A DNA stretch of 64,000 nt from Curvularia clavata (GCA_023920165.1 CP089277.1:2728001-2792000); one strand, 5' to 3'. Positions 12,216 to 59,898 are shown, counted from the stretch's first letter. Translations and numbers: made by a program. The notes: a model not told the origin generated them from the letters alone.

Positions 12216-14456
12216 TCAACAAAATGTCAAGATTTGTGTCGCACACTGTCCAGCTTCTAGTGCTGCAATTGCCTCTCCATCCATGAGACCCTGCACGTAA
12301 GCCTCGCCCAGGACTTGGTAACAGTCGCCGAAGGGGCGTATCACGAGAGGTGTGCTGCATCCAAATACTATAGCAACAAGATCGCCTTCTCGTGTTTGCT
12401 CATCGGAACCGCCGTAGATGTTATCTGGTGCCCAACCCAGATAACCTCTGTGCGTCGTCATGAACCGCCGTTTTTTGCAGCTGCGATCAAAGCAAGAATA
12501 AGCTTCGGTATAAACGAACTCGGAAGCGTCTGGAGGAATCTCTTCTGAAAAGAAGTCATCGAACCGGTCTTCTCCAAGAGGGAAATCTCGCATGCCAGCT
12601 CGAAATTGTTCCCAGCGAAAGTAGTATCCCTCCTGGCTGGAGAGAAAATCCCACCCCCGCTCTTTGAATTGCGGGCCTCCGATAGCAAACGTAGATGGGA
12701 GACTGAAGATGGCAGCGTGCTGAGGCCCTGATCTCTTACCATATGCAACTCTGTCGCAGGTCAGAGTACGATACAAAGCCTCTGCTGTGGCATTGCGATT
12801 GCCATATGCACTCTTCCAAATTCGAGGAAACACGATGCTGTCTTTACAACGCGAAAAATATCCTACCCCACGAGCGGACAGACCGGAAACGGCGTCTACA
12901 ACAATACCAGTGCATCTTAGCCAGGATGTTTTGTCATCGAATACGGCGTCATGCTTTCGGTCGCCACTTGCACGGTACGCTGAGTCGTGTCTACACCCAG
13001 GATCACGTGAAAACAGATACGCAGGGCCCCATATCTGTTGATCATGGCGAGTCCATCGTAGCCTACCACTCCATGACCAATCTGCTGCCCAGGAAAGGCC
13101 TCGGGCAGGACCCCACGGATTTCCTTCTTGAAGGGCATCCAAGCTGTTATCGAAATGCATGAAAGCCCTTGCCGCGTCCCGATAGACTTCGCATTCGGGC
13201 AAAGTATAATCTGGACGTAAAATATTTGCGACGGCAGGAGCCATTAGACCAACCAAGGCATACACCTTATCTCTCTTGTCCGTACAATCACCGGAATTCG
13301 CAAGGTCCAACAGTCTCTCAAAGCTGAAGCCTGCAGCTCTTTGCGCATCCCGCATGCTGAGAACAGAGAGATCTTGGTATACAAGATGTAAGCTGCCAGT
13401 CTGCCACGTATGTTCAGTATGGAAACCCATGTTCCAGGCAGCTGTTTGGAGGCAACGATCTTTAATGATCCATAGATACTCTTGTAACACAGCAACGCCG
13501 CTACAGAATGTGGTCCAAGATAGTGTAATTTTGCCACATCGGATCCAGGTGGCGGTAGAGCCCATGATTACTTCTTGGATAATCCATAATCGAAACCAGT
13601 ATGGACGGTTCATCAATTCTTGAAGCCCTATCCATTGGTTTCCGCGATAAAGCATGGGATCTGCTTTCATCTGGGCGGCAAACTGATCGATACATCCACT
13701 CGCCTTAATCTCGGCAAGGTCGTGTACGAGTTGTATCGCTGCGCTGCTTGAGTCGCTTTCCTCGCCTAACCACGCAATAACTGACCACGCACTTCCGTAA
13801 ATGTCGCGCATCATCTTGATTTGGGAAGATCGCTCTTCGAGATCGTCTTGATTGATACAAAGTGCATCGACCCATAGCTTGAACTTATCATTGAACTCAC
13901 ATCCTCTACGAAACATCCTTAGAGCCGCTTCTAAATTTGCAGTTACAAGCACTTCATGGCCGTTGAGCAGTACAGTCCGCTTGTCGCTTTGATCCCCCCA
14001 GACGTACGAAAGCGCAGCGAAGTCTCCCCAGTTGAAGCGATAGAGACTGGGGCAAGGCTGAGTACTGTGCATCCGTCGTAGAGACGCTAGATTTGCTAGT
14101 TGAGGAGAAATTCGATTGCTTGCCCAGTCTTGCATGGTGGGCGAAATAGAATCTTGTGTAAATTTGAGGTAATCAGTAGTATGGTCGTCAAGAGAATAGA
14201 CTTGCATGCGACAGCGAACAGGTTGAGAAGCATCTTCAACTCCAGGCACAACAGTGAGAAGCCTTATCTCGCGATTCGAATGAGAGAGCCTTCGATAGAC
14301 CGGCTCATTTGACGAGTTTTCATAGCCTGTAAGAGGCGCCAACCAGTCCGTAGGAAATGTATACAAGCCTGAAGGGGGTCCTTGGGATGTTATCTCCATG
14401 TCATCGACATCATCGGCTCGAGGTGGGATGGAAATATGTGGATCCGGGGTATCCAT
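12216..14456 (-). CDS. HET-domain (heterokaryon incompatibility, HET-6-like) protein
   Basis: EIRLL, ALSYVWG, LWVDALCINQDD..ERSSQIKMMRDIY, YWFRLWIIQE, DKVYAL and C-terminal GEAYVQGLMDGE. Start placed at MDTPDP (14456); the upstream ATG at 14615 is also possible. Confidence 0.93.
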   Translation of the reverse strand: MDTPDPHISIPPRADDVDDMEITSQGPPSGLYTFPTDWLAPLTGYENSSNEPVYRRLSHSNREIRLLTVVPGVEDASQPVRCRMQVYSLDDHTTDYLKFTQDSISPTMQDWASNRISPQLANLASLRRMHSTQPCPSLYRFNWGDFAALSYVWGDQSDKRTVLLNGHEVLVTANLEAALRMFRRGCEFNDKFKLWVDALCINQDDLEERSSQIKMMRDIYGSAWSVIAWLGEESDSSSAAIQLVHDLAEIKASGCIDQFAAQMKADPMLYRGNQWIGLQELMNRPYWFRLWIIQEVIMGSTATWIRCGKITLSWTTFCSGVAVLQEYLWIIKDRCLQTAAWNMGFHTEHTWQTGSLHLVYQDLSVLSMRDAQRAAGFSFERLLDLANSGDCTDKRDKVYALVGLMAPAVANILRPDYTLPECEVYRDAARAFMHFDNSLDALQEGNPWGPARGLSWAADWSWSGRLRWTRHDQQIWGPAYLFSRDPGCRHDSAYRASGDRKHDAVFDDKTSWLRCTGIVVDAVSGLSARGVGYFSRCKDSIVFPRIWKSAYGNRNATAEALYRTLTCDRVAYGKRSGPQHAAIFSLPSTFAIGGPQFKERGWDFLSSQEGYYFRWEQFRAGMRDFPLGEDRFDDFFSEEIPPDASEFVYTEAYSCFDRSCKKRRFMTTHRGYLGWAPDNIYGGSDEQTREGDLVAIVFGCSTPLVIRPFGDCYQVLGEAYVQGLMDGEAIAALEAGQCATQILTFC

Positions 14457-14733
14457 GATATAATGAAAAGGTATATATGTGAAGGCTACATTACATAAAA
14501 CAATCTCGTAGATATTCCAGCTGCCTAAACGACCTGTTCGGCTGAAGACTTGGCAGGCATCTGCCAACCACCACTTCAGGCATTGGTATCGACAAATCAG
14601 TAGCTGAGAATTCATGGTTTAGCTGCAAACAAAAAAAGAACATGGTCGAGGTGAACGTGAGTTCATGCACTATTATGGAACTTTACATGGCGGTGCGGGC
14701 CCCATCGGACCCTAAAAAACCACCGAATTCGTG

Positions 14734-19502: not shown

Positions 19503-21568
19503 CTAAAATGTAAAGTTATTGTTGCCTCCGTACTCCATACCTGCCTCGTCACCTAAATGGTCCACGTGCATGAATTCATCGATAGAAAACGGGTCTCCCA
19601 TGCCATTGTTCATAGGAATATCCATCCCATCATGCGATTGCTGTGGCTGACTCAACGGTTGAGTCGGTGGGTCCATGCCTTCGATGATGCGTGTACCCTT
19701 TGGCACCGAGGCTCCGAAAGCGCCAATACGATCGGGTTGCGATATTATGGTCCCTCTGCCCTTGCCGGTTGCATCCCCACGAGCATTCATCCAGATGCCA
19801 TTACCTCCTTCACCATTCTTGACCGCTTTGGTAAATGGTTCTTGGAAGATAAGACTAGTTTCGTACCATCGACCTTTGACATCATCGATGTCTAGCTTGT
19901 ACGAGGGCTGTATGAGTTTCCACCAAGCAGCCGTACGGGTAACGGGCACGAGCAAGCGATTTCGCCACACCATGTCATGGACCATGCGAGAGGGTATGTT
20001 AACGTTTTGTTGTGGTGGCTTCGGGGGAAGATTGGGGTCCGGAGCGTCCATGGTCGCGTAGCTATAGACATCGCCGATGACAATCACCTTTATATGTGGC
20101 TGATTAGAAGAGGGATTGGTGAAAACCTGTTCGACAATGTCGGTGATAACCATCAAATCACTTCCAGAAGCGCCTATGCGTAGGCGAACAGGCTCACCCC
20201 TCCAAATCTTCTCGGCACCCAGGTATATGCCATTGTATTGGCGGAACTCGTTTCCTTTGTCATCCTTTGAGGTATGGAGGCGTTCGAAGAGTGTATATGT
20301 GGTATCAATGGCTTTGGCTGCCAGAATAGACGCATCAACGGAAGCGATACCTTCACCACCCTGCCCGTTGATGAGTGCTCTCCAGTCAGTGTTGCCATAC
20401 TCGAACTGTGGATTTTGCTGTAGGAAAGGAAACGTGCAGCTAGGCGCGGACCAAGCAAGCCACGGTTTAATGTGCTCGTCTGTATGTATAATCTCCTGCG
20501 GAAGGGACTCGAAGGGATGTGACAGTGGCTGGATCAGATACGACCTGTTCATAGGGTTCTCTACCATAGCCCATCTTCGTACAACAAGTCCAAGACCCCA
20601 AGCCGATGTCTTTGGCCGGAAGAACCACACCACTTCCCCGGTTCGACAAAGAAACTTGTTGTAAGTGAGGTCAACCTGCTGCTCGAGCGATCGTAGTTGA
20701 GGGAGAGGCGTCGACTGTAAAGTGGGAGGAGGCCGGATCTGCGGTGCACCAGGAGTCGATGTTGAAGCAGGAACAGGTGTAGCTGGCTTGATGATGGGAC
20801 TCGGAACTGGCGCGGTCATTGAGGGTTGGCGGGCAGGTATCTGCACTACAGGATTGCGGCTGACAACGACATTATTGTTCTGTGTATTGGTGTTGTTGTC
20901 GTTGTTTGGAGCAATCCCACTGGTACTGTTTTCTCGTTTGAGAGACACTGGCTGTTCTTGTTTAGCTTCGGCTTTGGCCTGGGGCTTCTCAACGTCGCCC
21001 GCTGGAGAGCACATTTTACATGTGCAGTTGATCATATCGCTGTTCTCGTCGGTGCACAGCCATAAAAGGTGCGGGAAAAATTCGACGGGGCTCCTGAAGC
21101 GCTTCTTGGGTCCCTTGGGGTAGCCATATAGATAGGCATCCTGCCGGTCGTGTCCACCACCCGAGTGATTCTTCACCGTCTTCACTTGTCCATCCGCTTT
21201 GGTTTTGATGTGCTCGTACAGGACGTAATTATCAGGTAGCTCCCAGAGAATACATTGCTGCCATTTGTCTGCCAAAAGTCAGCTTTGCATCATCGAGCTC
21301 GCTAGGCCCGTTACTTACCCTCGTACTGCTTGCCGCCAATCTCGCGAAGAAGCATCCCGCCCAGCTTCTTCCGCCAGTCCTGGTGCTTGGGGTCATCCTT
21401 CTCAATCAGACGGTAGAAGTCGCGCTGGCCCTGATCGTTGGGCGACATGTTGAGCTGCTCTTCGGTCGGCCCGTTCCGTATAGGTCGGCCTTTGATGTTG
21501 ACAACATGCTGGCCGTCTGACTTGGATGCGAATATGGGCCAAAACTGTGTCATGGGCTGCTGCGCCAT
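19503..21568 (-). CDS. clr2: Cryptic loci regulator 2 (Clr2, SHREC/heterochromatin silencing)
   Basis: Two exons (intron ~21271-21318). WRKKLGGML, LPDNYVLYEH, DRQDAYLYGYP..KRFRSP.EFFPHLLWL..CTCKMC (Clr2 N domain); R.GEVVWF, GIYLGAEKIW.GEPVRL and VKGRWY (Clr2 C domain). Confidence 0.88.
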
Positions 21569-21953
21569 GGTGAGCGACGGTGGTGCGCCGACTGCGCAGA
21601 ACTTGGGAGAGCTTCTTTGCTAGACGTGTGCAAAGGGTTTCGCGACCACATGCGAAGGCGCTTCGGACTTACTCGGCGTTATGGACAGGCGCGCTAGGAC
21701 GCGTCTCAGCCCTGAAAGTCGCCGCCAAAAGCATCGGGATATGAGACGTCATTTTTTGGTTATGCCCTTCATGCGTAGACTCACTCTTCACCACTCATGG
21801 CCTTATGTGGGATTCTAGGCCCTTTGCTCTATGAGCCTTGTGACGTCAGGCTGTTTGATCAAATGAAATCGATCCCTCCCTACACTTTTCTTACCCTAAA
21901 CACTTGTTCACTCTAAAGCTAAGCAATCTGCATAATCAACTGCTTTCGCCATC

Positions 21954-24900
21954 ATGGCAAGGCAGCCTGTTATCACACTGGGGTCTCCTCAGCCGATCAC
22001 TCCGCCACGTAGACAGCGACGCGGTGGCCAACTACAAGATCTTTTAGCGCAATTTGGATCACAGAGCTCAGTCGAGTCCGCGACCAAGAAACGGCGGCTG
22101 CTTTCGCAGCAGAAGGACGAACAAATGTCGCCAATCCCTGACTGCGACACCGGACGCAAACGCAGTCTGCGGAGGCAAACAGCGGGACACCATGCGGCAT
22201 TGGATTCAAACACAGAAGACGAGCCCCTTCACTCCTCCAAAAAAGATACACGACCCGAGTCAATCCCAGCAGGCCCGAGTCCAGAAGACAGCGAAGACGA
22301 ACTCGCGCCATCCGCTCGTCCCGGCAAGACAAGCAACAGGATCGCAGCATACAAAGAAGAGCTCAAGATGGAGAAGCGCAAAAGAGAAAGGGCAAACACA
22401 GAGGGCCTGCGGCGGAGCACTCGTGGAAGGAGAAGCATAATCCTGGAATCTGACACTATGCCTACTCCGTCGTTAAGGCAGCAGAAAGCAGCGCCTTCTC
22501 CCAAACTCAACACCATTCGTAACCGCCTTCGCGATGACATAGCCAAAGGAGCCAAGGCGAGAGCAAACAACTTTCTTGTTGCTAACAAGGATTTCTTTCT
22601 GCCGCTGCTACCGAAGAACAACAAGGTAGCAAAACTAGTTGCCGAAGGGAAGGCGCAGCCTATTATCGAATACGAAGAAATCAAAGAGCAGCCCAAGGGA
22701 GTAACAGCCGTCATGAAGCCTTATCAGCTGTCCGGTCTATCGTTTCTCGTGCACCTGTATAACAATGGTTTCTCTGGCATACTCGGCGATGAAATGGGTC
22801 TTGGAAAGACGCTACAGACTCTTTCTCTCTTTCAGTATCTTGAGGAGCTCGATCAGCAAAAAGGCGTCGTATCTGAAGAGCCTCGCCCCTACCTCATCAT
22901 CTGCCCGCTGAGCGTCCTCAACTCTTGGGTCACCGAGGCCGAGAGGTGGGTGCCAGAGCTTGGCGTAATGCGTTTCCATGGCGCTATGAGCGAGCGAACT
23001 CGTCTCAAGCGAGTCGCGGCAGGTTTAGAAGACATGAAAGGGAACGAAACTTCTCGTGCGCGGCATCGAAAGCAGTTGCGCAAAGCTGGTCAGAAACTCT
23101 CCAACATGCCTGCTCGCGCCCCGTCAGACTCTTTCAAGATCGTTGTCACGACTTATGAAACTTTCCAAGCTGAGCAAGCCTGGTTCAAGCACTCCTTTGC
23201 CTGGCGCTATGTTGTTCTAGATGAGGGACACAAGATCAAAAACAGCAGTGCACAGATATCTACCGCATTAAAGAGTGTGAGTGCAGAGTACAGGCTCATC
23301 TTGACTGGCACACCACTCCAAAACAACATGTTAGAGATGTGGTCTCTTTTGACCTGGCTATATCCCAATGTCTTTGATGCAAGGACTGAAACACTGTTCC
23401 GGGAATCGTTCGATCTCAGCAAAGGCAAGGCAAACAAGCAGACCATGACAGATGCACGACGCTTGCTCGAGCTCATCATGCTTCGCAGAATGAAAGACTC
23501 CCCGTCAGTCAATCTCGGTCTACCACCTAAGGAAGAGGTGCTCCTTTACGTGCCTCTCACACCAATGCAGAGATTTTGGTACACACGTCTCCTAACTCGT
23601 ATCGATGATGGAGTGCTGAACGAAGTCTTCGCTGGTGGAAAGGAGAAAGAGAAGGTGTCTATTGAACATGAAATGAAAGAAACTCAGTTGTTGCATAAGC
23701 TCGAAGAGATGGACCAAGCGATCAGTGCTGGCAACATTGGTGATGAGTGGGCGGAGACTGCAAAGATTCTGCAAGAAGCTGTAGCGAAGGAAGAGACCGA
23801 CACAAGTGCGTCGAAAGGAGCTTGGAAGAAACTTATGAATCTTGTCATGCAGTTGCGGAAGTGCTGCTCACACCCATACCTGCTTCCAGGAGTTGGCCCA
23901 GATCCGTACTACCTTGGCGACCATGTTATCCGTGCTTCCGGTAAGTTTATACTACTGGAAAAGCTGCTCAAACATACTGTCCTTGACCAAGGCAAGAAAG
24001 TTCTTATCTTCTCGAGCTTTACCTCCACACTCGATTGTTGTGAGGACCTCTTGTCCCTTGTCAGCAACCATGGCGAGCGATTCAAGTATCTTCGCCTTGA
24101 TGGAAGTACGGCAAGAGCTCGCCGAAACTTGGATATTCGCCTTTTCAACCAGGCGGACTCAGACTACAACGTCATGCTTGTTTCCACTCGTGCAGGTGGT
24201 TTAGGTATCAACCTTACCAGCGCTCAGGATGTCATATTCTTGGACGAAGATTGGAACCCACAGATCACCCTACAAGCCGAAGCTCGGGCTCATCGTATTG
24301 GTCAAACCAAGAAGGTGACCATCTACAAGCTCTGTACTCAGGGAACTGTCGAGGAGCAGATGATGGGTCGCATCCGGAAAAAGCTTTATTTGTCGGCAAA
24401 AATCACTGAATCTATGCAAAACATACATGGCAACCAATCGACTGGAAATAAAAAAGCCTCCATTGACGAAGATATGCCACAAATGAACACATCACAGCTG
24501 ATGACACTTGTGCGACGAGGTGCACAGACGCTCTCTCATCCTGAGATCGATGTCAAGGAAATGGTTTCTTGGGATCTCGACACAATGATGAAGAGATGTC
24601 GTGACCAGTCCGCTGACTTGACTGATGTTGCGGCAAATACTGAGGTGGACGAAGATAAGTGGCTTTCAACCATGGAACGCATTGAATGCGCCGTGTTCGA
24701 AGGCAAGCGTCATCAACGCAATACCGACGACTCATACGCGGGCACTTCCTCTCGTAACATCCTTCCGGAAACGGTCACCAGAGACGACCGCCGCAAGAAC
24801 AAGAATACCACAGTCATGGTGAATGGATTTGCCATTAGTAAAGAGTCTATGGGCTGTGGCGAGTGGGAAGCGGTGCCGACTCTTGCTGGCAAAGATCCCC

Positions 24901-25631
24901 GTCTCGCTGAACCAGTCCGAGAGAAACGACGCGAGTTTGACCACGAAGACCATTGTCTTGAATGCTTTGAAGAAGCCGGTGATGGAAAGATGGTGGAATG
25001 TAAAGGCTGCCCCCGCGCCTATCACTTCGATTGTCTCGATCCCCACTACCAGGCCAAGGCCAAGAATGCCTTCGGCAACTTCCATTGCTCTCAACACAAC
25101 TGCTGGGATTGCGGAAAGTCAACGACCGACGCTGGGGGCCTCATGTTCCGTTGCCGCTGGTGCCCTCAGGGCTTTTGCGAGGATTGTCTTGACTGGGACA
25201 AGACTGAGCTCATCGGCGAGAATCTACCTGAATTCGAAGTCTTGGATGAAGAGGCCATGCCTACCGGCTTCTATATCAAGTGCCCATCTTGCATCAAATT
25301 GGCAGAGAAGGACAAAGACCACAAGGCTTGGATCGAGGAAATGGAGAAGATGTACTACGACGAGCGTGTGGCCTGGCTGCAGGAACGTGAAAAGAAGCAA
25401 CATGAGTTAAATGAGCGTCATGCGAGCGTCAAGCTTGAAGACGATGACGAAGCAGATTCACTACCAGCACTTACAGACACTTCTCGCTCGACTCGCTCGA
25501 TTGGCGGTTCTGGTGTCGCTACGCCGAAGGACCCTGAGCAGCCAACGTTAGGGAACAGCATTAAGTCCAACAAAAGGAGCTTTGTGTTTGGCGAGATCAA
25601 TGAGGCTAAGAAGGCCAAAATTACCAGATAA
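21954..25631 (+). CDS. SNF2-family (ISWI-related) chromatin remodelling ATPase with C-terminal PHD/Cys-His zinc fingers
   Basis: Intronless 1225 aa. GILGDEMGLGKT, DEGH, TGTPLQNN, QLRKCCSHPY, SGK, RLDG, STRAGGLGINL, DWNPQ..QAEARAHRIGQ. C-terminal CLEC..CKGCPRAYHFDCL..CSQHNCWDC..CRWCP..FCEDC..CPSC. Confidence 0.93.
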   Translation: MARQPVITLGSPQPITPPRRQRRGGQLQDLLAQFGSQSSVESATKKRRLLSQQKDEQMSPIPDCDTGRKRSLRRQTAGHHAALDSNTEDEPLHSSKKDTRPESIPAGPSPEDSEDELAPSARPGKTSNRIAAYKEELKMEKRKRERANTEGLRRSTRGRRSIILESDTMPTPSLRQQKAAPSPKLNTIRNRLRDDIAKGAKARANNFLVANKDFFLPLLPKNNKVAKLVAEGKAQPIIEYEEIKEQPKGVTAVMKPYQLSGLSFLVHLYNNGFSGILGDEMGLGKTLQTLSLFQYLEELDQQKGVVSEEPRPYLIICPLSVLNSWVTEAERWVPELGVMRFHGAMSERTRLKRVAAGLEDMKGNETSRARHRKQLRKAGQKLSNMPARAPSDSFKIVVTTYETFQAEQAWFKHSFAWRYVVLDEGHKIKNSSAQISTALKSVSAEYRLILTGTPLQNNMLEMWSLLTWLYPNVFDARTETLFRESFDLSKGKANKQTMTDARRLLELIMLRRMKDSPSVNLGLPPKEEVLLYVPLTPMQRFWYTRLLTRIDDGVLNEVFAGGKEKEKVSIEHEMKETQLLHKLEEMDQAISAGNIGDEWAETAKILQEAVAKEETDTSASKGAWKKLMNLVMQLRKCCSHPYLLPGVGPDPYYLGDHVIRASGKFILLEKLLKHTVLDQGKKVLIFSSFTSTLDCCEDLLSLVSNHGERFKYLRLDGSTARARRNLDIRLFNQADSDYNVMLVSTRAGGLGINLTSAQDVIFLDEDWNPQITLQAEARAHRIGQTKKVTIYKLCTQGTVEEQMMGRIRKKLYLSAKITESMQNIHGNQSTGNKKASIDEDMPQMNTSQLMTLVRRGAQTLSHPEIDVKEMVSWDLDTMMKRCRDQSADLTDVAANTEVDEDKWLSTMERIECAVFEGKRHQRNTDDSYAGTSSRNILPETVTRDDRRKNKNTTVMVNGFAISKESMGCGEWEAVPTLAGKDPRLAEPVREKRREFDHEDHCLECFEEAGDGKMVECKGCPRAYHFDCLDPHYQAKAKNAFGNFHCSQHNCWDCGKSTTDAGGLMFRCRWCPQGFCEDCLDWDKTELIGENLPEFEVLDEEAMPTGFYIKCPSCIKLAEKDKDHKAWIEEMEKMYYDERVAWLQEREKKQHELNERHASVKLEDDDEADSLPALTDTSRSTRSIGGSGVATPKDPEQPTLGNSIKSNKRSFVFGEINEAKKAKITR

Positions 25632-26766: not shown

Positions 26767-27476
26767 TGTGAAATTGGTGTTATCAAAGGTTGTTTGTGGT
26801 ATGGATTTGGAGAATTGGACGTGCTGGGGATCGACGCGTGAAGCTGGAGAGCGACGTCATCGCGTGCCAAGCTTTGGGGATGGAGTCGCGTCTTCATGTG
26901 CTGAGGTCACCTACTGCGAAGCGAGAGACACTAGGTAGCGAGACAAATGCCTACTAAAATCAAAATCTAGTCCTTCTATGAAATCTCCAAGCTCTACAAG
27001 TTGTAAAATGATTCAGTAGTGTTTACTCGTCTGACGAATCCATTTTCAATAGAGATTGCGCAGTTGTTGCTGATTCTGTTGATCATTTCGTTGATGCCAT
27101 TTTGGCCCCGTCTACCTTCCGACTCCTGCTGCATTATTTCTACGACATCTTAAGGTACTTCGGTATGTTGCTTGGACAGCTAAAAGAACGAAAATGTTGA
27201 TCTTCGGGTCTCATCACGATTGGCAGCAAGGAACAGTCTTTCCAGCAATTTCTCCGTGTCCATGCAGTGGTGGAGCTATCTAGCAGTATTTTGTGCGGTA
27301 GAGAAGGAACAATATGATCAGGTCTTTGTCACAGCTAAGCCTTATTCGAATAATTCCATTCACAGCTGTGGCTCATTGTTCTTCCATCCCTTTCTGAGCT
27401 GGGTGTCCTTTAGCCGCGTGAACTGCACTCCTCCAGCCATCACCGTCATCACCATCAACACGTTAATAGTACAACG

Positions 27477-28905
27477 ATAGACAAGACAATTCGTACGCTG
27501 GCAGAAGGAGTCCCGAAGGGTGTTCGTTTCTCTTTCAGTGCTCTCGCCGACCACATAGGAGTCTCACACTCATCAGCCCATCATCGTTCCAAGGGCTGGC
27601 GATCGTTAGAACAAAAGACTCAAGGCCAGCGGTATCTTACCCCGTGAGAAGACGAAGAAGAAGAAGAAGAAGAAGAAGAAGAAGAAGAAGAAGAAGAAGA
27701 AGAAGAAGAAGAAGAAGAAGAAGAAGAAGAACCACCACTTATTAATTCCATCCTCCAGATATTTGACTTGGGCTATCCTATGCGGATCAAATTCATACCA
27801 TCCCTAGCTTAACACCTTACATTACAGCGACCTCCGTTCGCCCGACCGACCAAGCCTTCATATCTAAACTAAACAAGGGCATTCATACAGTGCCATTCAA
27901 GGCTGTAGGCAAGAATCGTCGAGGGCATAGATTAGAATCGTCATGAGAAGAATATATACCCAAAGAGCGCACACTAGTTTAAGGTGATCGGACCAGTATT
28001 ACAGGAAGGTACGTTCTTACCAGAGAATACATGTAATCTGGACGAGACCAGAGTCATGCTTTCTATACTTGGCTCATTGAAAGTCCTTATAAGAATAACC
28101 AGTGGTCCTATAGGGGTGCCCAGATAAAGCATACAACTATTACTACTATAGAGTACATAAGCGCTGATGTTAGGTATCTAAACCCTATAATCATTTAGCC
28201 GGCTACTACTCACCGAAGTAATCAGACCACATACCCCACGCCTGGTTAGCAGTCCGCATGCTATAACTCAGGCTACACTGATTCCTATACTACTGTACAA
28301 TGGCCGATACGGATATTCGATCCTGTAATTAAGGAACAAGCCAATGGCAAGCCTCGAGTCTTAATCTGCGACGGCTTTAGAACTCATAAAATACTTAAAA
28401 TTCTTGAGTTCTGTCTCTAAAATAATATCCTCTCATAAGCTCCAACCTCAGGCCAGTGACTCCAGTAACCACGCAAGGATTAGCATCGCTGCAGAACATC
28501 ATGGTTAAACAAGTCACCAAGATTCTTAGCCCAAGCACGCAGTGTAATCTCCAAAAGTACGTTCAGAAGCTATCGAAGGCTGGCCATATAGCAATTTCTA
28601 TAGGTTTCCTCCAGCGCGACCGAATCCAATTCTTAACAAGGATCAACGAAGAGGCGAAAATTCAACGATCAGCTGAAGCAGATATGCTTGGAAAGGCGAA
28701 AGTAATGGGTTACAATAAACTTGAGGAAGCTCGAACAAAGCGTGGCAAGAAGGAGGCGGCTAAAGCAGCTAAACGTTAACAGAAACTCAAGATTACAAGA
28801 GTAGGAGAAGAGTCACAGGCTAAGAAAGCGAGTCAGGGCGAAGTACAGGTTGAACAGGCTGATTTGGCATGCAGAGCACCTGAGGCGCCGATGGTCCACA
28901 ATAGA
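27477..28905 (+). mobile_element. Degenerate pogo/Fot1-type (CENP-B HTH + DDE) transposase relic, RIP-mutated and internally deleted
   Basis: Readable fragments IDKTIRTLAEGVP...SAHHR...QRYLTP*EDE(n)...DLGYPMRIKFIPSLA*; ID*NRHEKNIYPK.AH*F...ENTCNLDETRVMLSILGSLKVL; IEYISAD...NPIII*PATTHRSN...SGYTDS...KPRVLICDGFRTH; C-terminal PVTPVT...INEEAK...LGKAKVMGY...RAP. No TIRs recognised. Confidence 0.88.
27654..27731 (+). repeat. (GAA)26 perfect microsatellite
   Basis: Direct count: 78 nt of uninterrupted GAA. Confidence 0.97.
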
Positions 28906-29738
28906 ACATTCTAATGTCGTTTGTCATTACGATAGTAGAGAGGCAATTGATGGACGATAGTATAGCCACTATCAAATGTAGCTTCATTCCTATGCGCTCT
29001 TGCAACAACGATTCCATCGGTGTGCCAATAAGGTTCTATAGCCACACTTGCTACAACGGGTGGCGAGCCTTGGCTTTGCAGATCACGCCCGGCAAAATGA
29101 TAGACAGTTTCAGATCTTTCACTAGCAACGGATCATATAGAGGGACACTGCGCCATCCGCTTCATCTGCTGCAATTTCTCTTAGAATAGCGCCAAATATA
29201 TCTACTAGAAGCTAATATCATACATTGTATAGTGATATAGTATTAGACGTGGAAATAAATCAGTAAATCTAGCTTCGCTTCGGAAGGGGATTGCAATACA
29301 GCTTGGCATCCCACTTACTCTAGGTCGTTAGGCGCCCACGTCCTTGACACAAACGTTGCTGCCTATTTTATCGTAAACAGGGCTCAGGCGGCTAGCCGAC
29401 CAGTAAGGCGACAGCAAGCACAAAAGAGCACTGCCACCTTTGCGTTTCGTCAATTCTGCCTCGCCCTCGACAGACAGAGCACTGCCACCTTTACTCTTCA
29501 TCAACTTGCCTCATCCTCAACAGCAATCAATGTTAGATAAGAGTAGCCTCGGCTGGACTGCGTATTGCTCCGTGTATCTTGAATGTTACCACCCAGTTGA
29601 ACCTCAAATCTCTAAATCACCGCATTGCCGCATCACGAGCTGAGTACGGTGGCACGTATGATGGCGTCAAGCTCCGCGTATGATGCGAAGAATTCCCCGG
29701 AACGACTTCGTCAACGAATTGTTAACCCGGCATATTCT

Positions 29739-30936
29739 ATGCCTGGTAAGTCAAGGTATCTAAAGTGGCCAACGATCTAGTATTGTTTAACGCGACGTAG
29801 GGTTGAAGACTCCAAGGATTGTGATGTCTGACCGATATGGATCTAGACCTGCACTTAAACCAGCCCTAGTCTCCCTCGCACGGACTTTGGCTCTGTTCGA
29901 CCTTCAACTCGTCCAGCGTGTCCAAAAATTCCACCAAAAATCTTCTTCATCTATAGATGAAACCCGCAAAGCTGCAGCTCTTCTTTTGTTAGAAGATTGC
30001 AATGATATCAGACAGCAGTGGAGAGACATCGACTCAGGCAAATGTCAATTCAGCGAGCTGTACATGACGAGTGATCTCTTGGTTCCCATTTGGGCGGAAG
30101 GCTTGCGCATCATCAAAGACGTCATTAGAAGTAAACAAGTTTCCAGCGAACAGTCAAACAAGCGGAATGTCTTTGCACGCATTCTGTTAGATTACGAGAG
30201 TCTAGCAGGACGCCTGCAGGAACGAATGGTTGATGCTGCTCGTCAGGGTCTTTTCGATCCAGATTTTTTGAACCCAATTCAAGAGCGCTGGTTGCGGCTG
30301 GACGAGACTATAGACCTACATTATAACTTGTGTAATGTTGATGCTGACGAAGACATGCACAGTTTTTGTCGTCAGTCACCCACATGGTAAGTTGCTGATG
30401 CAGAATTGAGATACTGTATAGGATGCGAACGTTGATTAAATTTTAGGTTAGAAGTTCGAAGCTTAGTACAAAAGGAGGCTAGAGGGGCAAAAGATCACGA
30501 CGAGCTTATGCAAAACCAAATTGCTGGCAGGCTCCGGAACACAGCTGAGCCTGGTAAAGCAGCCGGGTCAAAGAGCGTGCGAGCTTGTAGTTCAGTGCTA
30601 GTAGTCTGCAGCTGTGCTATAGCTCCCATTCCGTTGTTCTGTTTTGGATACGCCTCTTCAGATCATCTCCGAGGGACAACAGGCGATGCAGACTTCTGGT
30701 TCCTCATTGCGGCCACCTTGACCCAACTTCAAGGGTTAGGAGCTTCCGCACTTCTTGAACGGGACCGTGGCCGCCTCCCAAAATGGCGCTGGGTTATTCC
30801 TGCTGCAATTGCAGGAGTTTGTTCCATCGTGGCCATCCCCCTTTATCTTTATATACCAACAGAGTGGAGCTCCCTTTTCTCTCTAGTCGCCGGAATACTT
30901 CAAGCCTTCATGATATCGCAGTTTTTTCTTTTCTAG
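29739..30936 (+). CDS. Hypothetical membrane protein with helical N-terminal part and 3-4 C-terminal TM segments
   Basis: ORFs 29803-30390 and 30508-30936 join in frame through a GTAAGT...TTTTAG intron (~30388-30446; SPTW|LEVRSLVQKEARG...). Hydrophobic DADFWFLI...LYLYIPTEWSSLFS. 5' exon uncertain. Confidence 0.6.
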
Positions 30937-32199
30937 GTGTCCTCAATCAGAAAGCCCTCATAGCGATCGGAAACGATGCGTTGCATCCTAGAAAAGAGAG
31001 GGAGCTAACTGTGACAGCGTGAGTAGCGTTTGTCTGAGGCATATGCCAGATAGACAGGAGTGTGTGTGATTTCCTAATTCGAAAATAATCAAGAACAAAT
31101 TCTGTTCCAGTTCCTACCAATGATGTGCACTTCAAATACTCGAAACTTTCAAATTATAAGCTAACTAAAAGAGCTACGACTAGGGAGTTGTGAGCTAGAA
31201 CGAGGACATAAGTCAATCTTCTTGCGTCATGGTACACTACTTGTCTAGTCTACTTGTGCTTAATTAAAGAGTTGCGAGGTGACGCCAAGACACTTGTTCG
31301 TGTGTAGAATAGTTGTGCGGGTGGTAAAACTGGTTTCGCTAGTGGCTATACAGTAACTGAGATCTTGGTAATTGATAACCTCTGTCTGTACACGTGTTTT
31401 TTTTGAACTCGGGAGTAATCAGAGGAAAGAGCTGACACTTGCTTTATCAATAAATAGTCAAGGCTTTCAGCCACATCTGCTGACAACAATTTCTGTCAAG
31501 GCTGTTCTGCAATGTATTATCGTGCTCTGGTCATGTACTCTCCTAACCACTCAAGTTTCAGGTACCGACCAGGGTGGCAATATCGCATAGTCTTGATTCC
31601 TACGCCAGCATTAGGCCTTATGAAAGCTACTAGATGTTATGATAAGAATTATCATTACCAGTAGAACTGTTGCATGTGCCTGAAGTCCCTGTTAAGCTTA
31701 ACTACAATCCCGTAGCCTATGCAGCCTTTGGGCGATGCGTAAAAGCGTCCTCTGGCCTCGTTGTAATACGGTAGGACGCAACGGCAACAGGCTAGATAAC
31801 GGTTCCCAAAAACGGACTCCACGTCATATCGCAAAATGACTGCATAAGGTAAGGTTTTTGTATTAATAATGTAGATCTAGTTCAAGGTATCCTTCCTTTG
31901 TCTCGCTTTGATGTGTCTCACTTCGCAGTCGGTGACGTTAGTACCTGCATTCTTCCTTGTCTTACCTTTGCAATGTGACACTCGTGCGATGAACAACTGG
32001 AAATGAGTTTTGAGAGTTGATAATTGTCCGAATCAGATGTACATTTCAATCGTAAGCGAAGGGGTCGAGTCATTTGGGAAACAATTCTATTACCTAGCTC
32101 CTAAAAGTCGGCAAAAACATGTGCTACATGCGTTGCTTGCGTAACGTGAGATAATAGAATCAAACAAATAAAGAACTAGCAACAATAATGTAAGGTAAA

Positions 32200-35100
32200 T
32201 CAATAAACCTCGAGGAAAGACATATTGTCAAATACGCGCCGCTTCTTCCAAGCAGAACTGCAATTTACCGCGATTTTCTTGACGTCTTCACGGCTGATTT
32301 CATAGCGATCCAGGAAGTCCAGACCGTCGTCTGAGTGTTCACGCGACTTTCTCTTGGTACCTCTGGTACCAAGGAAGTCCAGATCCGCATCGTCAACACT
32401 TCGTTTCAGACTTGGTTCGCCATTCGCGGCGCTTTGCTCTGCAGATTCGGACTCTATGTCCTCGGACTCGCCATAATGGTCTTCGAAAATAAAATTGTTC
32501 GAATAGTCGTATGGATAGACGTATTGATCAAAAGTGCCCAGAGTGTCGTCAACCACTTTATACTGTTCTATCCTGGCTGCAAGATCATTTTCGTTGGTTT
32601 GCCTGAAGGTGTGGCTAAAACGACGATTCAACGGCACATCGCTGAACTTTGTCTCCTTTGTGAGTTTGTGGGAGAAAAACCAAAGTGCCAGCGTTTTCCA
32701 GTCCAGGATACCAGCTACAGCTGCTTGGGAGAGAACGTAGGCCTGATAATATATGTCCCTATTGAATTTCACTTTCTTGTTAAATTGAAGGCCCATGGCG
32801 ATCATCCAGGCGTTGATCAACACATGATGTCCACATGACCAGCGGCTGATCTGCTGCGGAAGTTCGTCTCTAAAATAGAGTGCACCCCCTGTTAGGGGCG
32901 AAACAGGCTCTTTGTCTTCGCGGTGCGTTGACCATCCAATGAGATGAGCTGCGTCTTCAATTTGTTCCCCGAAGAACTCTGCCACTTCTTCGAAGACGCG
33001 GAAATTACTGTCAAGTACATGCATTTCAAGAACAGGCTCGCTTGCGTCCAACTCATCGCTGCACATCTCCTGCACGAGTACAAGGAATGAGTGGCCAATC
33101 TCGCCTCGAGGGGGTTTCCATGATTTTTTATGCTGAGCGGCCCATCGCTGCAATGTTGGCAAGAGTCCATCTATGGATACAACTAGAGGAAACAGCCAAG
33201 CGCGTCGTGGACGCGAAAGCACCTTGTTTTCATCGCCAATCTCATGACTTAGCGCCAGCTGAATCTGAGTGCTAGTTGTCAAAGAGAAACCTCCAGCAAA
33301 AGGCGCATCAGGGTGTACCCTGGCATGGATATCCGTTTGTAAAGCATCAATAGCCTCCAATACGGATGCCATGGTGAGGTTCAGTTCGGAGTCCCATAGC
33401 ATGCGGTTGAACTTATCTGATATAACACGGAGGCCAAGGATCTTCTGAGCCTCGAAGTTCGTCATGATCACTTCGTAGAAATCAATGGTATCATCGACCC
33501 AGTCTTCGGAAGCGCTTAGAAGAGTTGAGTCCATTCCTTCGTATTGGCAGTTGATATCCGCTAGGATGGCTTCTACTAGGTCTTCACGAGACGGCGTTGC
33601 TGATTTCAGCTTCTTCATGCAGTTTTGTAACCGCCATTTCGGCACCCCGGAACACTTCTCCCTCATCTGCTTGTCGTCATCGTTCGGGTCGAGTAGGTGG
33701 AAACGTAACAGTTTTTGCACACGTTCGTCAAATCTCGCATCCCGCTTCCATCCATCGGAAGGGAACTTCGAAGTGTGGGGTTTTCCGACCATGTTCGGCA
33801 CGCGGTTGCAGTTTCTTATCGGCTTCATTCTCTTTTCATCGTAATCACGACCCTTCCAGTATGTTTGCTCAATTTTGCGTTCCTTATCCAGTGCCTCGTC
33901 AAAATCTCCTGCCGTCTTCGTTTCATGCGTGCGAGCGAAACGTCTATTCTCGGGTACAACGCCGTCTCGAACAAAATCGCGGCACCGTAGCAGAGCAAAA
34001 ATGAGCTTCCAATCTGCGCATCCAATACGTGCAAGATGTACGACGTCCAGCACCTGCTGGAAAACTTCATCAGTCCATGTAGTTTTGAGATCCGGATTGA
34101 GTTCTAATCCCAGCGCCAGGCCCCACGCATTCAGTATGGCGAAATATCCACATTCATTGTCGGACTGCTGGAAAGCCACAGGAACCCAGGTTGCGGTGGC
34201 TGGCTTGACCCGACTGAAGTTGGTCTTGTTTGGGAAAAAGTTCCGCCACCAAGATGTATGAAGCAAAAGCTCCCAGGCTGTCTGGTATACCTGGTGACGG
34301 TATTCTGGTTCATAATGCGTTGGCAGAGAATCAAGGATCGAAATCATGGGACGGCCTTCGGCGTTGAACTGTGCAACCAGAACAACGATGTGATGTGCAT
34401 AGACGAATGGAGCAATAAAAGGCCGACCAGGACGAAGGATAGGGGCTACAAGACCTTCTTTCAGAGCGGCTTTAGCTGTTGCAGCTGTTTCAGCCGTCGC
34501 CATAGTATATGATGGAACGATGCTAAATCCCTCTTCCATACCCTGCATCTGGTTGATAGCCATCAAAACAGCGTCGACGGAAAGTGCAACTTCTTCGTCG
34601 TGTAGCCATTTGCCTTTTTGTTGTGTTACGCGTCCCTCTCGCAATACCTTCAATTCTTGTCTTACTCCTTCGTCTGCTAGTAAGGAACTTAGAGTGTCTC
34701 GAAGATACTTGCATGGTTCAAACTCCTCAGCGTGATCCTCATTAAAAGAAACCATAGTGTCGGTAAATTCACTGGGCTGCAGTTCAGAAAACCCCGTGAT
34801 GCCATTTCTCGCATGAACATCGTTCTGAGTCGATTTGCCTTGCTCCTGTTGGTTTCCGCCGGGAGATAACATGCTGTCGGTATGTTCACTAGGCTGCAAT
34901 TCGGAAAACCCCGCGATGCCATCTTCTGGCCAAGATTCGTCCCAATCAATGCTCGCACCAGATTCGCGAATCGAGTCTGACTGGAAGTAGTCATACACGT
35001 TGACATTAGCATCCGTTGAAGCTTTGTTCTTTTTCGACTTCATTTCCGAAATGTACGCATTGTGCTCCCGCGACGGTATAGTATTGACGAATCTTCGCCC

Positions 35101-38014
35101 AGGCGCTGGTGCTTCCGCCGATGCTACATAGTCATGGCAACGTAGCAAAGCCCAAATGTCCAACCAATTCACCTCGTCCTGTAGCGCAGTCTGAATAACC
35201 AAGTACGCGTCGTGTATGAACTTCGGACTCGATTTGAAACCTTGGATATTCAGAGGCAGACCAAACACGATGCTCCATGCATTGAGCACAACGTGATATC
35301 CACTGTGATTCTTGTGCATCTGTTGGGGTCCAGCAATCCAGGGAATTGGCCCAGTAATGGAAAGTTCCTTGCGGAGCTGTTTGCGGATCTTACTTCGGGC
35401 GTCTTGGTTTGTAACGAGAGGCTTTGAGTCTATGACTGTGCAGGAACGGGCACCGTCTGCTGGGCCATGAACCATGACGCAGATCTCGTGGTCATCGCCT
35501 ACTTCGTAGATGAAAACTGAGATGGAATCTTCGTTGCGACCGATAGAGGAATGTACTGCAATTGTTGAATTTAGCGTTTTTGAGGCTTCCGTAGTGAAGC
35601 CAGCTCCAGGAGGGTGACGTAGGTTGACGGCTCGAACTACAGCTGCTATGCTGTCTCGGATGTCTTTCTTAGCCAACCTTGGTATCTCGGCTGCTTGTGG
35701 TGTTTTTTCCTTTGCGTGGTGATGAAATAACTCCTCCTGGCTAACAAAATCATCGAGATGCCCACAAGGATTGAAATTCTTCGGTACAGCAAGTGCATCT
35801 GATTCGGGGTTTTCAGTCAGGGACATATCCGGCGGTGAACCTGCACCAGAGGAAGATTCACTCCCTTCTGCAAGCCTTTCGAGCTTTTGCGTGAACTGCT
35901 GCACCGTATCTTGGAGCCTCCAATTTCCTGCTCGCACAAGTTGAGTAAGCATATCCCGCATCTCTTCAGTGAATGAATCCGCTGCAAAGGCCGCGCTGTG
36001 CAGAATTCCCTTTTCAAGATGCACTGGCAATTGCTCTGGATGTATGTTCTTTCTTGTAGATGCCTCATCTGCACGTGTTTGATCAGCAACAAGAGCTTCA
36101 AAAGAACGCTTGCGCTGGTCAAAGCGGCGGTTTGTCGCAGGCAAATAAGCATCATCGCTGTTCTTGTCTTCTACGGTAGCTGCTAGCTTCACGAATCCAG
36201 TGCAGCGCAAGAATGATAGAAGGACCTTCCATGTTAAAGAGTCGGTTAAGGCCAGATCGAAGATCCTCTCAGCCTTAATAAAGAAAGCTTCGTTGCCATG
36301 GTGACTGGGTGTAAATGTCGGATCAGGCTCTAGACCCAGGACCAAGGCCCACGCATTCAGAATTGTATATGTAAAAGTACCCTCCTGAGTGGGAGTCTGT
36401 GCGCATGGCATCCATTCGATGTCCTTGGGTAGGTGAGCTACCATTTCCTCGTGCGAGTCGAAGGTGTTGCGCAACCAGTCAGTTCTCATGAACCAGTTCC
36501 GCAAGTCGTTGTTGATCTTGTCACGGTGATTTCTTGCGCTTCTCCAGGTCCTGGGATAGAGAGCCCTAATTCTGATGCTGAAGTCTGGTTGGATCTGGCC
36601 TATGACTAGAAGATAGCGGCCACTGTCCGTGAGAGCAGTGACCAGTGTTCTTCCTGGTCTGAAAACAGTGTCTTTATGAACAAAACTGAACCCGGAATGC
36701 TCCGGTTGTCTATCGTTGATAGAGGCAATTACCCGGGGGATTATAGATGCGATCTTGTTGCTGGTGTGCCTTTTAAGACCATGTTGAACGTAGGCGCAAG
36801 GATCCTCTATCGGCTGCCCATCATCTGTGAATGCGTCGGAATATTCAATTTCCTCGGGGCGATGGCCCTCCATCGGCTCATCTCTCGAGACTTGGGGCTG
36901 TCTGGCTTGAACATGTACAACGTCTCGTTCGTCTCCATCTTCATGTTCGACACCATTCAAAAATGGCTCGATCGCTAACCATCTAACCGTCACATTATCG
37001 GCACTAACGTCACCATTCCGGTCGCGACGTTGTAGCTCGTCTTCAGTGACCTTCCTGGTAGTAACCGTATATTTTAAGCTTCCCTCGTGCCTGAAGAAAA
37101 ATGCTGGTTGAGAAAGCAACTCGATTACGGCGTAACCTTGCAGCGGACCAATATAGAAGGGCGTGGGCGAAGTAGCACCATTGTTTGTAAATGTGATGCC
37201 GTTGACGGTAACAGAAATCCCTTGTGGAAGCTCGATGAAATATCCCAGCGCAGGGTCTTCCTCGCCTGCTGATACGCGCCGGATAAAATCGATATGAGCA
37301 GCTTCACCATTGACGGTTCTAGCTAGGGGTTAACAAAGAACACAGACTTCAACTTGACCTTACTTACACTTGTAAACGTCGATCTTCGTCCAGAACTAGC
37401 ACCTCTTGGTTCTCTGCATTTGAGAGTATCACTACAGTATTGCCAGTGCCGGCCTCGAAGTCTTCCGTGAGTGCAGCAATGGTGTGGTGGCCATCCGGTT
37501 CATTTACACTTCGATCCTTGATGTTGTTGTAGAGGTTGCGCAATGCCGCGCTGGATTGATTTGCATCCCCTTCTTGTATATCTTTGCCCCCTTTTCTCAG
37601 ATAGAGTGGCGTCCTTATCTGAGCCTCTGGCAAAGCTGCTTGCACTGGCTGTAGCTCATCTGATTCTCTGTTGTACAATGCGTGGGCGAAGTCATCAATA
37701 TGTTTTTGGTCAGGAACATTACTTCGTTTCGCCTTGGGTATGGCCCAGTTGACTTCCAAGACATCACGTTGGTCATCTCCGGATTTTTTCTTTGGCTTTG
37801 ACTTTTTGGGAGTCTTCGGGGCTGCTGGAACCTTTGTCGGACTTGCTGGAGCTTGCGGATTTGATGCAGCCTTCTTCGGGGTTTGAATGACCACCCTTGG
37901 ACTGTTTTTGCCGGGGGGCTTCCCTTTGGTGACCTTTGAGCTTCTGGTGACCCTTGAACTGCTGGGGGCTGCCTTTCCCCCTTTCTTGTTGTTCTTTCCT
38001 CGTTTCGGGGCCAT
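32200..38014 (-). CDS. ~1921-aa protein with four tandem Ulp1/SENP-like (C48, CE clan) cysteine-protease repeats
   Basis: The 216-aa ORF and 1639-aa ORF join via a 49-nt intron 37367-37319 (GTAAGT...TTAAC...TAG), keeping frame. The repeat signature [H]..hhDS..QQxxxxCG.hhhLNAW.h.hGL...W..h..hLRC..V...P..RRF occurs four times with varying conservation. Confidence 0.8.
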
Positions 38015-39005: not shown

Positions 39006-40068
39006 TCACATAGCGGTGGGGTGGTGGGAATATCCGTTCATCATGTCCAGAAGCGCCGCATTGTTCATTTGATTGTATTGTCCAGAGTAGCGGTATCCTA
39101 TGCTGTGCTCTAGCTCGGTTCCAGGGTCTGATCGCGCCGTGCTCATGACGTTTGCGGTCTCGATGCATGAAGAGCGGTTGTAGTAATTATATGGGTCTTC
39201 AGGGTAGCCATAGTCGCGTGAGTGAGTCCATGAGCTAGTGTATGGTCGGTTGTAGGGATAGTCATAGGGCACGTCTTCTAACTTGATCTCAGTACCTGGG
39301 GGAGTCGATGGCGCAGCGTAGAAGTTTGTGGAGTAGGAAGGAGGCGGCGTACTTGTGGTCGAGACCATCGATCCAGGGCTGGGAGAATCATCACATCCAA
39401 AATCCGCAGAACGCGGAGGTAGGGTGTTGACAGACTGGGCTGGAGGTGTGTTTCGAGTGATTAAGGCGGGTCTTGTATGCGAAGCCACATATGAAGCTAT
39501 TGATGTGCTCGGATCTGGCTTGGTCTTTCCGTCAAGCATTGCACCCAGCCTGGATGCCGCAGAAGCTTGCTTGTTGTACTGGTCCGGTATGCTCTCCAAA
39601 GCGGCGGTGATCTCTGGTTCGGACACTCCCCGCTCACGCAGGATTGCCTTGAGCTTGCGGTTCTCCTCGAGTACTGTTCTTGCAGCAGTTTGAATCTCTG
39701 ACGAGGCTTCAATACCAATCTGCTCGTAAGTACGCAGCTTTGTCTCGAGCTCGTGCAGGTATTCTTTTCGCCGAGCGCGTGAACGTCCTGTTTCGAACAG
39801 TGTCAGCGTCAATCCTACTGTGCATATCTGACAGGCATCATCTCTGATTGACCAAGACACGTGATCTCCCGTGGACGAAGGAGAAGTAATGTTGAAAATG
39901 GACATAGAAGCTGTCGAAAAAGTGACAGTCTACAGAGAACAGTGACTACTTACGTTGATTGTCTCGAATACGAGCCAGGTGCTGCGCTTTCTGCTGCCGT
40001 AAGTCAGTGATGAACTGTCAGAGGGGCTGTGGGTGGGTACATACTGATAGCCGAGCAGAGTCACTCAT
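39006..40068 (-). CDS. bZIP transcription factor
   Basis: Three exons give MSDSARLS|QKAQHLARIRDNQR|RSRARRKEYLHELETKLR...ARTVLEENRKLKAIL. Canonical GTATGT/GTAAGT donors. Confidence 0.88.
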
Positions 40069-59759: not shown

Positions 59760-59882
59760 GGCTTTTGGAATCGCACTTCCGCTTCTGGTTTCGAAGTATG
59801 GACAGCTCAAGGTCACACATGATGTTGGAAGCCTCCATTGTCTTAGCGAATCACGTGATCGCCACTCTCCCCGCTTTTCCCT

Positions 59883-59898
59883 GGATAAATCCTTACCC
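59883..59898. promoter_or_regulatory. Putative QA-1F/QutA activator binding site
   Basis: GGATAAATCCTTACCC matches the Neurospora QA-1F consensus GGRTAARYRYTTAYCC at 15/16 positions; it lies in the qutR-qutA intergenic region. Confidence 0.65.

Follow-up and report, generated by a model that had tools for sequence, protein, structure and literature searches.

A single-copy gene with four CE-clan repeats

The stretch analyzed here, referred to as the window, comprises 64,000 nucleotides of Curvularia clavata DNA (CP089277.1:2728001-2792000). Its minus strand carries a gene (38014-32200) that encodes, after splicing, a protein of 1,921 amino acids with zero internal stops. The protein consists of a basic N-terminus, a putative FHA-fold domain, four tandem repeats related to CE-clan cysteine proteases (D1 to D4), intervening linkers, and a C-terminal tail (Table 1). 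The single intron predicted in a first-pass annotation of the window was confirmed in contigs of three of four sequencing runs (X1, X2, and X4, all from one study and presumed to be RNA), from which the exact 49 bases are absent; Bipolaris gene models continue across the same exon junction. The 32-Mb genome contains one match to the protein, i.e., the gene is single-copy, and this result together with the conserved neighbors rules out a mobile-element origin. Transposon-borne Ulp1-like genes, such as those carried by MULE and Zisupton/KDZ elements, are in contrast multi-copy and mobile. Twelve coding single-nucleotide polymorphisms separate the window from the sequencing runs (7 non-synonymous, 5 synonymous), too few for interpretation. 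No hydrophobic leader was detected at the N-terminus by hydropathy, which also ruled out secretion or membrane anchoring; the first 80 residues include 23 Lys or Arg, and three S/T-P-x-K sites occur in the N-terminus.

Pairwise BLAST comparisons show that the four repeats are homologous, with E values between 2e-16 (D1-D3) and 5e-4 (D1-D4), and every motif previously named for them was found in place. The proposed division into two intact and two dead repeats also held, given that the nucleophile codon specifies Cys in D3 and D4 and Ser in D2. Both D3 and D4 carry the intact His-Asp-Gln-Cys pattern and are predicted from it to be proteolytically active; the His-Asp-(Gln)-Cys order is absent from D1 and D2. 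Two details of the annotation required revision. D1, described as having lost all catalytic residues, indeed lacks His, Asp, and Cys, but retains a Gln that is nearly invariant among relatives. The LWDSE sequence of D4 does not represent the W-L-x-D motif, since its Trp is out of register and a Met occupies the Trp position. The W-L-x-D Trp is present in D3, absent in D4, and found in 70 of 200 intact domains of the family.

AlphaFold modeled D3, the connector, and D4 as a single compact unit (39 sequences; predicted local distance difference score, pLDDT, 88; predicted template modeling score, pTM, 0.85), and the front part, i.e., the N-terminal domain, D1, and D2, with lower scores (30 sequences; pLDDT 76, pTM 0.47). 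The top Foldseek rows were CE-clan proteins for both models. In structural alignments, D2 and D3 or D4 matched Ulp1/SENP proteases with Z scores of about 13 and Den1 with scores of 11.1-11.5. The CE-clan fold proposed for each repeat is therefore supported for D2, D3, and D4; D1 is covered by no listed structural row, and its fold is assigned from sequence homology and AlphaFold secondary structure. The fold match suggests that the triad residues of D3 and D4 are adjacent in three dimensions.

These comparisons also bear on the possibility, which we consider very remote, that the protein is a YopJ-like Ser/Thr/Lys acetyltransferase built on the CE fold. D3 has a weak Pfam match to Acetyltransf_14 (E 0.03), PopP2 ranks high in the Foldseek search with the D1-D2 model, and YopJ enzymes likewise lack the conserved Trp residues (PMC4961225). 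However, Z scores to YopJ-family chains were just 7.9-9.5, the PF03421 score (14.3 bits) is below the cut-off of 24.4, and the Asp (97% of intact domains, a figure that partly reflects how intact was defined) and oxyanion Gln (96%) are protease-like.

The first-pass annotation had missed three parts, which are new here: the putative FHA fold, the linker module with its several copies, and the LxFL[DE]xY motif at the C-terminus. Among the listed structural rows covering model residues 1-81, all 20 are FHA-domain proteins, with Z scores of 4.4-5.5 on a domain cut by the intron; with caution, we assign the modeled N-terminal domain to the FHA fold. This fold match has no counterpart at sequence level: a hhalign comparison with nine FHA loci of the same genome (one of which, L010, was badly extracted) was not significant and no better than shuffles, the N-domain profile, run against PDB sequences, returned chance matches only, and an Atlas search with the domain gave no lead. 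Phospho-Thr-binding FHA pockets contain G-R, S-x-x-H, and N-G motifs, the last within S/T-x-N-G-T. The S/T-x-N-G-T(-x-V-N) motif occurred in 0 of 52 sequences, and the counts of G-R and S-x-x-H were not positional. The domain was present in 93 of 219 collected proteins, 90 of which also contain a CE repeat.

The three linker modules, which follow D1, D2, and D3, matched each other at 94-98% in hhalign; a degenerate UBA domain was rejected as their identity, with hhalign values of merely 0.2-0.7%. Part of the module in the D2-D3 linker is displaced by a recent 59-nucleotide duplication that matches a cassette boundary in Alternaria (see below). Of 42 proteins, 34 have a motif of the LxFL[DE]xY type in their last 110 residues, against a background of 0.003 for a stretch of this length (the pattern was picked after inspection of the same tails), and FL[DE]xY forms the protein end in 23 of the 42. 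The motif recalls cyclin-docking LxF motifs.

Table 1. Features of the CE-repeat gene, in window coordinates
Feature	Position	Strand	Remarks
Exon 1	37368..38014	-	Lys/Arg-rich N-terminus, conserved stretch (residues ~95-190), and probable start of the FHA fold
Probable FHA-fold domain	37084..37440	-	Probably spans the intron; upstream limit approximate; modeled part 37084-37317 (exon 2)
Intron	37319..37367	-	49 nucleotides, GT..AG
Exon 2	32200..37318	-	Open up to the stop codon
D1, dead CE repeat	36088..36810	-	Thr at nucleophile position 36376-36378
Linker module 1	35841..36021	-	Pattern G..H...F..D....V..L.R.G; homologous to the modules after D2 and D3
D2, dead CE repeat	35068..35784	-	His 35488-35490 and Asp 35428-35430 kept; Ser (AGT) at nucleophile position 35302-35304
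D2-D3 linker	34747..34922	-	59-nucleotide direct repeat, 83% identical, spacing 117
D3, intact CE repeat	33913..34734	-	Trp 34606-34608, His 34390-34392, Asp 34330-34332, Gln 34165-34167, Cys 34150-34152 (TGT)
Helical D3-D4 connector	33451..33912	-	Contains linker module 3 (~33615-33795)
D4, intact CE repeat	32578..33450	-	His 33091-33093, Asp 33010-33012, Cys 32833-32835 (TGT); no W-L-x-D Trp
C-terminal tail	32203..32392	-	Basic clusters and three copies of L/M-x-F-L-[D/E/G], the last being the protein end

Distribution, dead repeats, and ancestry of the family

A word-based search recovered 41 relatives, of which the named ones all belong to Pleosporales and bear automatic names only; phmmer with D3 returned 215 representatives (150 listed). 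When 177 proteins were scanned with a profile, each was found to have between one and seven repeats, with seven in Byssothecium and Amniculicola, six in Macrophomina, and four in Botryosphaeria. Single-repeat forms with the N-terminal domain also exist, e.g., a protein of Oleoguttula, and members occur in the lichen fungi Toensbergia, Alectoria, and Cornicularia. The family spans Dothideomycetes and lichen fungi, on the class assignments that we presume for the hosts, and some members contain UBA domains. Relatives named "thioredoxin" or "alpha-glucuronidase", and one bearing an MFS domain, look like gene models fused with their neighbors; synteny explains the thioredoxin case only.

The loss of the nucleophile follows repeat position. 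Across 34 four-repeat relatives (the Botryosphaeria protein, with its reversed order, was left out), the Cys was present in none of the D1 repeats, one D2, 33 D3, and 32 D4. Considering all 397 well-covered repeats, 204 have the Cys and 193 do not; the latter mostly carry Ser (89), Ala (43), or Thr (16) in its place (148 in total), and 96 of the 193 retain both His and Asp. A total of 102 proteins combine dead and Cys-bearing repeats; 93 of them start with a dead repeat, and 89 end with one that carries the Cys. Since Pleosporales repeats group largely by position in a tree of 160 repeats, D1 and D2 became dead repeats long ago. Two Botryosphaeriales proteins (P0092, P0109) show the reversed order, with intact repeats first and dead repeats last, meaning that their array was rebuilt independently.

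As implied by the earlier suggestion that they serve as binding modules, the dead repeats are kept rather than decaying. They are under purifying selection, with a ratio of non-synonymous to synonymous substitution rates of 0.11-0.16 (D1, three locus pairs), and are as conserved as the intact ones (mean identities of 0.43, 0.35, 0.43, and 0.42 for D1 to D4). The first-pass annotation suggested that the array could bind and trim poly-SUMO, NEDD8, or ubiquitin chains, with dead domains as binding modules. Taken as a housekeeping chain editor, in which consecutive SUMO or ubiquitin units would be bound by dead repeats and the chain trimmed by intact ones, and with the allele classes described below as a historical by-product, this explanation strikes us as unlikely. 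It agrees with the preponderance of small residues at the dead nucleophile position together with the frequent retention of His and Asp, similar small-residue substitutions being those of substrate-trapping mutants, as well as with the arrangement of dead repeats first and Cys-bearing ones last, the single-copy syntenic gene, and the UBA domains of distant relatives. Against it, dead repeats show an eroded W-L-x-D-x-E motif, D1 and D2 were not modeled as a fixed array, and the genome already owns Ulp1-, Ulp2-, and Den1-like genes.

Those genes are among four other C48 genes of the same genome, the Ulp1, Ulp2, and Den1 labels being ones that we presume from motifs. The family profile aligned along the domain of the Ulp1-like gene (77%, E 2e-6), whereas no alignment was obtained with the Den1-like gene (0.08%). 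By sequence score, the two genes reached 18 and 5 bits, respectively. The best CE-clan match among PDB sequences was the Ulp1-like protease of Chaetomium thermophilum, 6DG4 (E 0.015 and 2.6e-4). The full-domain alignment and this match together indicate Ulp1 ancestry. Searches of Pfam and PDB sequences with the single protein gave weak or no matches: the protein scores 16 bits against PF02902, below the cut-off of 20.7, and 3 of 40 relatives pass (33.4, 39.6, and 27.2 bits). The Atlas search gave C48-like leads for D3 (0.91-0.92). A fourth C48-type locus of the genome, L004 (G000:C4:846366-846731, minus strand), has His-Trp and Asp motifs and no Q..CG in its main open frame.

The nearest Ulp1 from a filamentous ascomycete, 6DG4, has the same fold (Z 13.0, root-mean-square deviation 3.8, 213 aligned residues), and the Ulp1/SENP group (MEROPS C48, PF02902) shares the His-Asp-Gln-Cys order and, with D3, the W-L-x-D motif. 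In a survey of 41 fungi, C48 domains were single throughout and two Pleosporales had one Ulp1 and one Ulp2 each (PMC7691676), in agreement with the first-pass statement that canonical fungal members have one catalytic domain. The present family has instead one to seven repeats including dead copies, an FHA fold, extra conserved helices ending in W...RRF, and cassette polymorphism. It also lacks the Trp that follows the catalytic His, which is highly conserved across the clan (PMC4961225): this residue occurs in 2 of 200 intact family domains compared to all four canonical C48 genes of the same genome. An aromatic pair near the equivalent of Ulp1 Phe474, a position cited as a C48 feature (PMC4822132), was found in 4 of 200 domains, in a region where the Ulp1 alignment is loose. 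Despite its apparent Ulp1 descent, the family thus falls outside Ulp1/SENP by post-His Trp, domain number, and Pfam cut-off. Den1/SENP8/DenA enzymes share the CE fold, but a separate Den1-like gene is present in the genome and the profiles do not align. Bacterial CE-clan deubiquitinases (SseL, ElaD, ChlaDUB, OtDUB, XopD, NopD, and Wolbachia CidB) likewise share the fold (Z 8-12.8) and provide precedents both for an Ulp1-like domain acting on ubiquitin and for the coupling of an enzyme with dead tandem domains. CidB combines four inactive nuclease folds with an Ulp1 domain and recombines (PMC11342252); the gene described here is in contrast a resident chromosomal eukaryotic gene without a secretion signal, and its dead repeats are protease copies.

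Preference among ubiquitin-like proteins is hard to predict for the CE fold (PMC4822132). NEDD8 is the least supported substrate and an unlikely one, given the lack of alignment to the genome's Den1-like gene. Ubiquitin and SUMO are the most likely candidates, with ubiquitin slightly ahead: UBA domains of a distant branch give indirect support to ubiquitin, and the Ulp1 ancestry would favor SUMO. UBA-type matches were found in 7 of 40 scanned relatives, three of them over the Pfam cut-off, and in 4 of 23 further relatives with E values up to 0.12; those UBA-bearing proteins that were included in the tree group with the lichen sequence from Toensbergia. Characterized eukaryotic CE-clan enzymes have one catalytic domain and are SUMO or NEDD8 proteases, in line with PMC4961225, where the eukaryotic members are SUMO and NEDD8 hydrolases. 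Members of the present family have dead and intact repeats in tandem, a probable FHA fold, and, in one branch, UBA domains. Should ubiquitin prove to be its substrate, the protein would count as a CE-clan deubiquitinase native to eukaryotes, and the family provides a direct test both for such enzymes and for the role of CE-fold pseudo-proteases.

The substrate might also lie outside this group. D3-D4 could be an endopeptidase in a recognition or cell-death switch that cuts a specific protein or its own linkers, comparable to HET-Q2 activating the gasdermin HET-Q1, which we judge rather improbable. The near-absence of the post-His Trp and the loss in D4 of the first Trp as well fit such an activity, as do the allele classes described below, the cleavage of precursor proteins by viral CE proteases (PMC4822132), and protease-driven allorecognition in fungi (PMC8851545). 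However, sequence and fold are closest to Ulp1, the UBA fusions point to ubiquitin, and no gasdermin or other effector was identified adjoining the gene.

Full-text literature searches, which did not target allele polymorphism and reached neither supplements nor most subscription papers, found no paper on the family. This agrees with the earlier statement that no described fungal protein is known to have this architecture, and databases give automatic names only. The available parts of PMC10318531, PMC11986368, PMC10919355, and PMC11342252 do not mention it, and a bioRxiv manuscript (10.64898/2026.07.31.741966) contained none of five terms searched for in it.

Cassette mosaicism and a candidate role in recognition

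Comparison with 16 metagenome loci revealed a largely syntenic neighborhood, in which the upstream neighbor is kept in 10 loci and a thioredoxin-like downstream neighbor in 8. At L044, five neighbors are 71-85% identical to those of the window (the upstream one 45%), compared to 33% for D3-D4. Loci L037 and L042 are 98% identical in the upstream gene, 97% in the FHA part, and 93% in D1, yet 47, 42, and 42% in D2, D3, and D4, respectively; their DNA is 93% identical up to D1, followed by ~4.2 kb that is mostly unalignable and a next gene at 92%. An assembly chimera at L042 was rejected, as the best matches to its domains come from an isolate genome (for D3 and D4, that of A. novae-zelandiae). 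At L043, L046, and L049, the frame of the orthologue is interrupted, reflecting errors, extra introns, or decayed alleles.

The same pattern was observed among six close Alternaria species. D1, the constant portion among close relatives, is present in five of them and 92-96% identical, while the remaining repeats fall into divergent classes: two for D2 (~50% identity between classes), three for D3 (43-51%), and three or more for D4 (38-41%). D2 is missing from some gene models. Class A of D3 is nearer to Bipolaris (57%), and class C nearer to Neocucurbitaria (52-55%), than A is to C (44%); the D3-D4 of the window falls together with Bipolaris and Pyrenophora on the side of class A. Sharp boundaries in the linkers, near window positions 35970 and 34920, delimit two recombining cassettes, one with D2 and the other with D3, D4, and the tail, which occur in several combinations, with D3 and D4 classes traveling together. 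The LxFL[DE]xY tail motif is retained in every cassette class. In approximately unbiased tests on 15-17 named or window sequences (leaving out unnamed proteins, two Bipolaris, and one Pyrenophora), monophyly of Alternaria was rejected for D3 (p = 0.001) and D4 (p = 0.004) and accepted for D1 and D2, and monophyly of the close Alternaria species was rejected for D2, D3, and D4. The D2 and D3-D4 classes are ancient; by these tests, the classes predate the genus Alternaria.

Because block alleles are ~40-50% identical among close species, a reading of the protein as an enzyme acting on near-invariant SUMO or ubiquitin only is disfavored. Likewise, an invariant substrate, as expected for the housekeeping editing of chains, fails to predict such classes, which differ even in the motif found where the D4 cleft opens. 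A further explanation, and in our view a distinctly improbable one, is that the mosaic arose without balancing selection in a fast-evolving ordinary deconjugase, through differential loss from a longer D3/D4 array or through introgression or transfer. Arrays of five to seven repeats do exist, and in Byssothecium repeats of the D3 and D4 types are present more than once. However, none of the nine named Alternaria proteins exceeds four repeats, such that many recent parallel losses would be needed, and the classes predate the genus yet D2 and D3-D4 cassettes combine in several ways.

The allele pattern resembles that typical of self/non-self recognition or defense genes rather than housekeeping enzymes. 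Trans-species polymorphism marks the Neurospora recognition loci doc and het-e, with few divergent allele classes older than species, normal flanking genes, and, for het-e, recombination between classes, as for the cassettes here (PMC4831770, PMC4540973). In Podospora, a protease controls het-Q (PMC8851545). In contrast to these loci (Neurospora doc-1/2/3 and het-e, Podospora het-Q), our gene has no HET, NLR, or gasdermin domain, and its product is probably nuclear. Deep trans-species classes between normal flanks were found in the Alternaria group and were not seen in Bipolaris.

We tentatively propose, at somewhat less than an even chance, that the gene encodes a nuclear, Ulp1-derived CE-clan cysteine protease whose dead repeats act as binding modules in recognition or conflict under long-term balancing selection. 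The constant front, i.e., the basic N-terminus, FHA fold, and dead D1, would tether the protein to a fixed host complex. D2, dead but with its His and Asp retained and present as alternative alleles, would bind a variable partner without cutting it, as a sensor or decoy, and D3-D4, a rigid pair that is passed on as a unit, would cut a ubiquitin-type conjugate off a specific partner. Different cassettes may recognize different versions of the partner or escape from different inhibitors, and an advantage of rare alleles could have preserved them since before the genus arose. Doubtful, though worth stating, is the more specific proposition that the family represents a novel type of receptor for immunity or self/non-self recognition in fungi, made wholly of CE-protease repeats, with dead sensors or decoys, a D3-D4 effector, and recombining cassettes.

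Several observations weigh against the proposed role in recognition or conflict. The Shimodaira-Hasegawa test of Alternaria monophyly was not significant for D4 (p = 0.066). Among pairs with D1 at least 80% identical, 17 of 37 were mosaic (15 partial or atypical proteins having been excluded beforehand), all among the 21 Alternaria-type pairs and 0 of 15 for Bipolaris; moreover, mosaicism was compared between species or metagenome contigs, with one strain per species, and both points would suit an origin by loss or introgression. Four sequencing runs of Curvularia clavata match the window at 95% or more, and no polymorphic partner gene was seen adjoining the locus. As for the biochemistry, the loss of the post-His Trp makes a Gly-Gly substrate uncertain, and UBA matches were found in no Pleosporales protein, using a profile built mostly from the same UBA sequences. 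The nuclear role that the first-pass annotation had suggested from the Lys-rich N-terminus stands as a probable location, indicated by basic motifs only. Nevertheless, the cassette polymorphism makes the gene a candidate recognition or conflict locus in Pleosporales, in which natural allele combinations can be compared directly.

Neighboring genes

The upstream neighbor of the gene (39006-39929, minus strand) has a basic, zipper-like start that resembles bZIP proteins by eye and gave no Pfam match; its copies in the metagenome loci are just 42-50% identical. On the other side, ~5.3 kb (about 26900-32150) separate the gene from the thioredoxin-like neighbor, compared to a few hundred bases in L037, L038, L042, and L044. 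Neither of two open reading frames in this stretch (29791-30390 and 30436-30936) was matched in any of the 16 loci or could be assigned clearly to a Pfam family. The stretch is possibly a lineage-specific insertion.

Further along the window, a HET-domain gene (12216-14618, minus strand; PF06985, E 5e-32) lies ~17.6 kb from the 3′ end of the CE-repeat gene; no match to it was found in related loci, most of which have flanks that end short of the corresponding position. At 57141-63696, a shikimate/dehydroquinase multi-domain gene, a fungal transcription factor, and a xylose-isomerase-like gene stand side by side, a group that we take to resemble a quinate utilization cluster. A Clr2 silencing gene (19503-21278, minus strand) is arranged head to head with a SNF2 ATPase gene (21936-25631, plus strand) encoding a C-terminal PHD finger, a position that ruled out the label Mit1 for this neighbor. 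The pair, i.e., two chromatin genes with a common promoter region, also occurs in L039 and L044.

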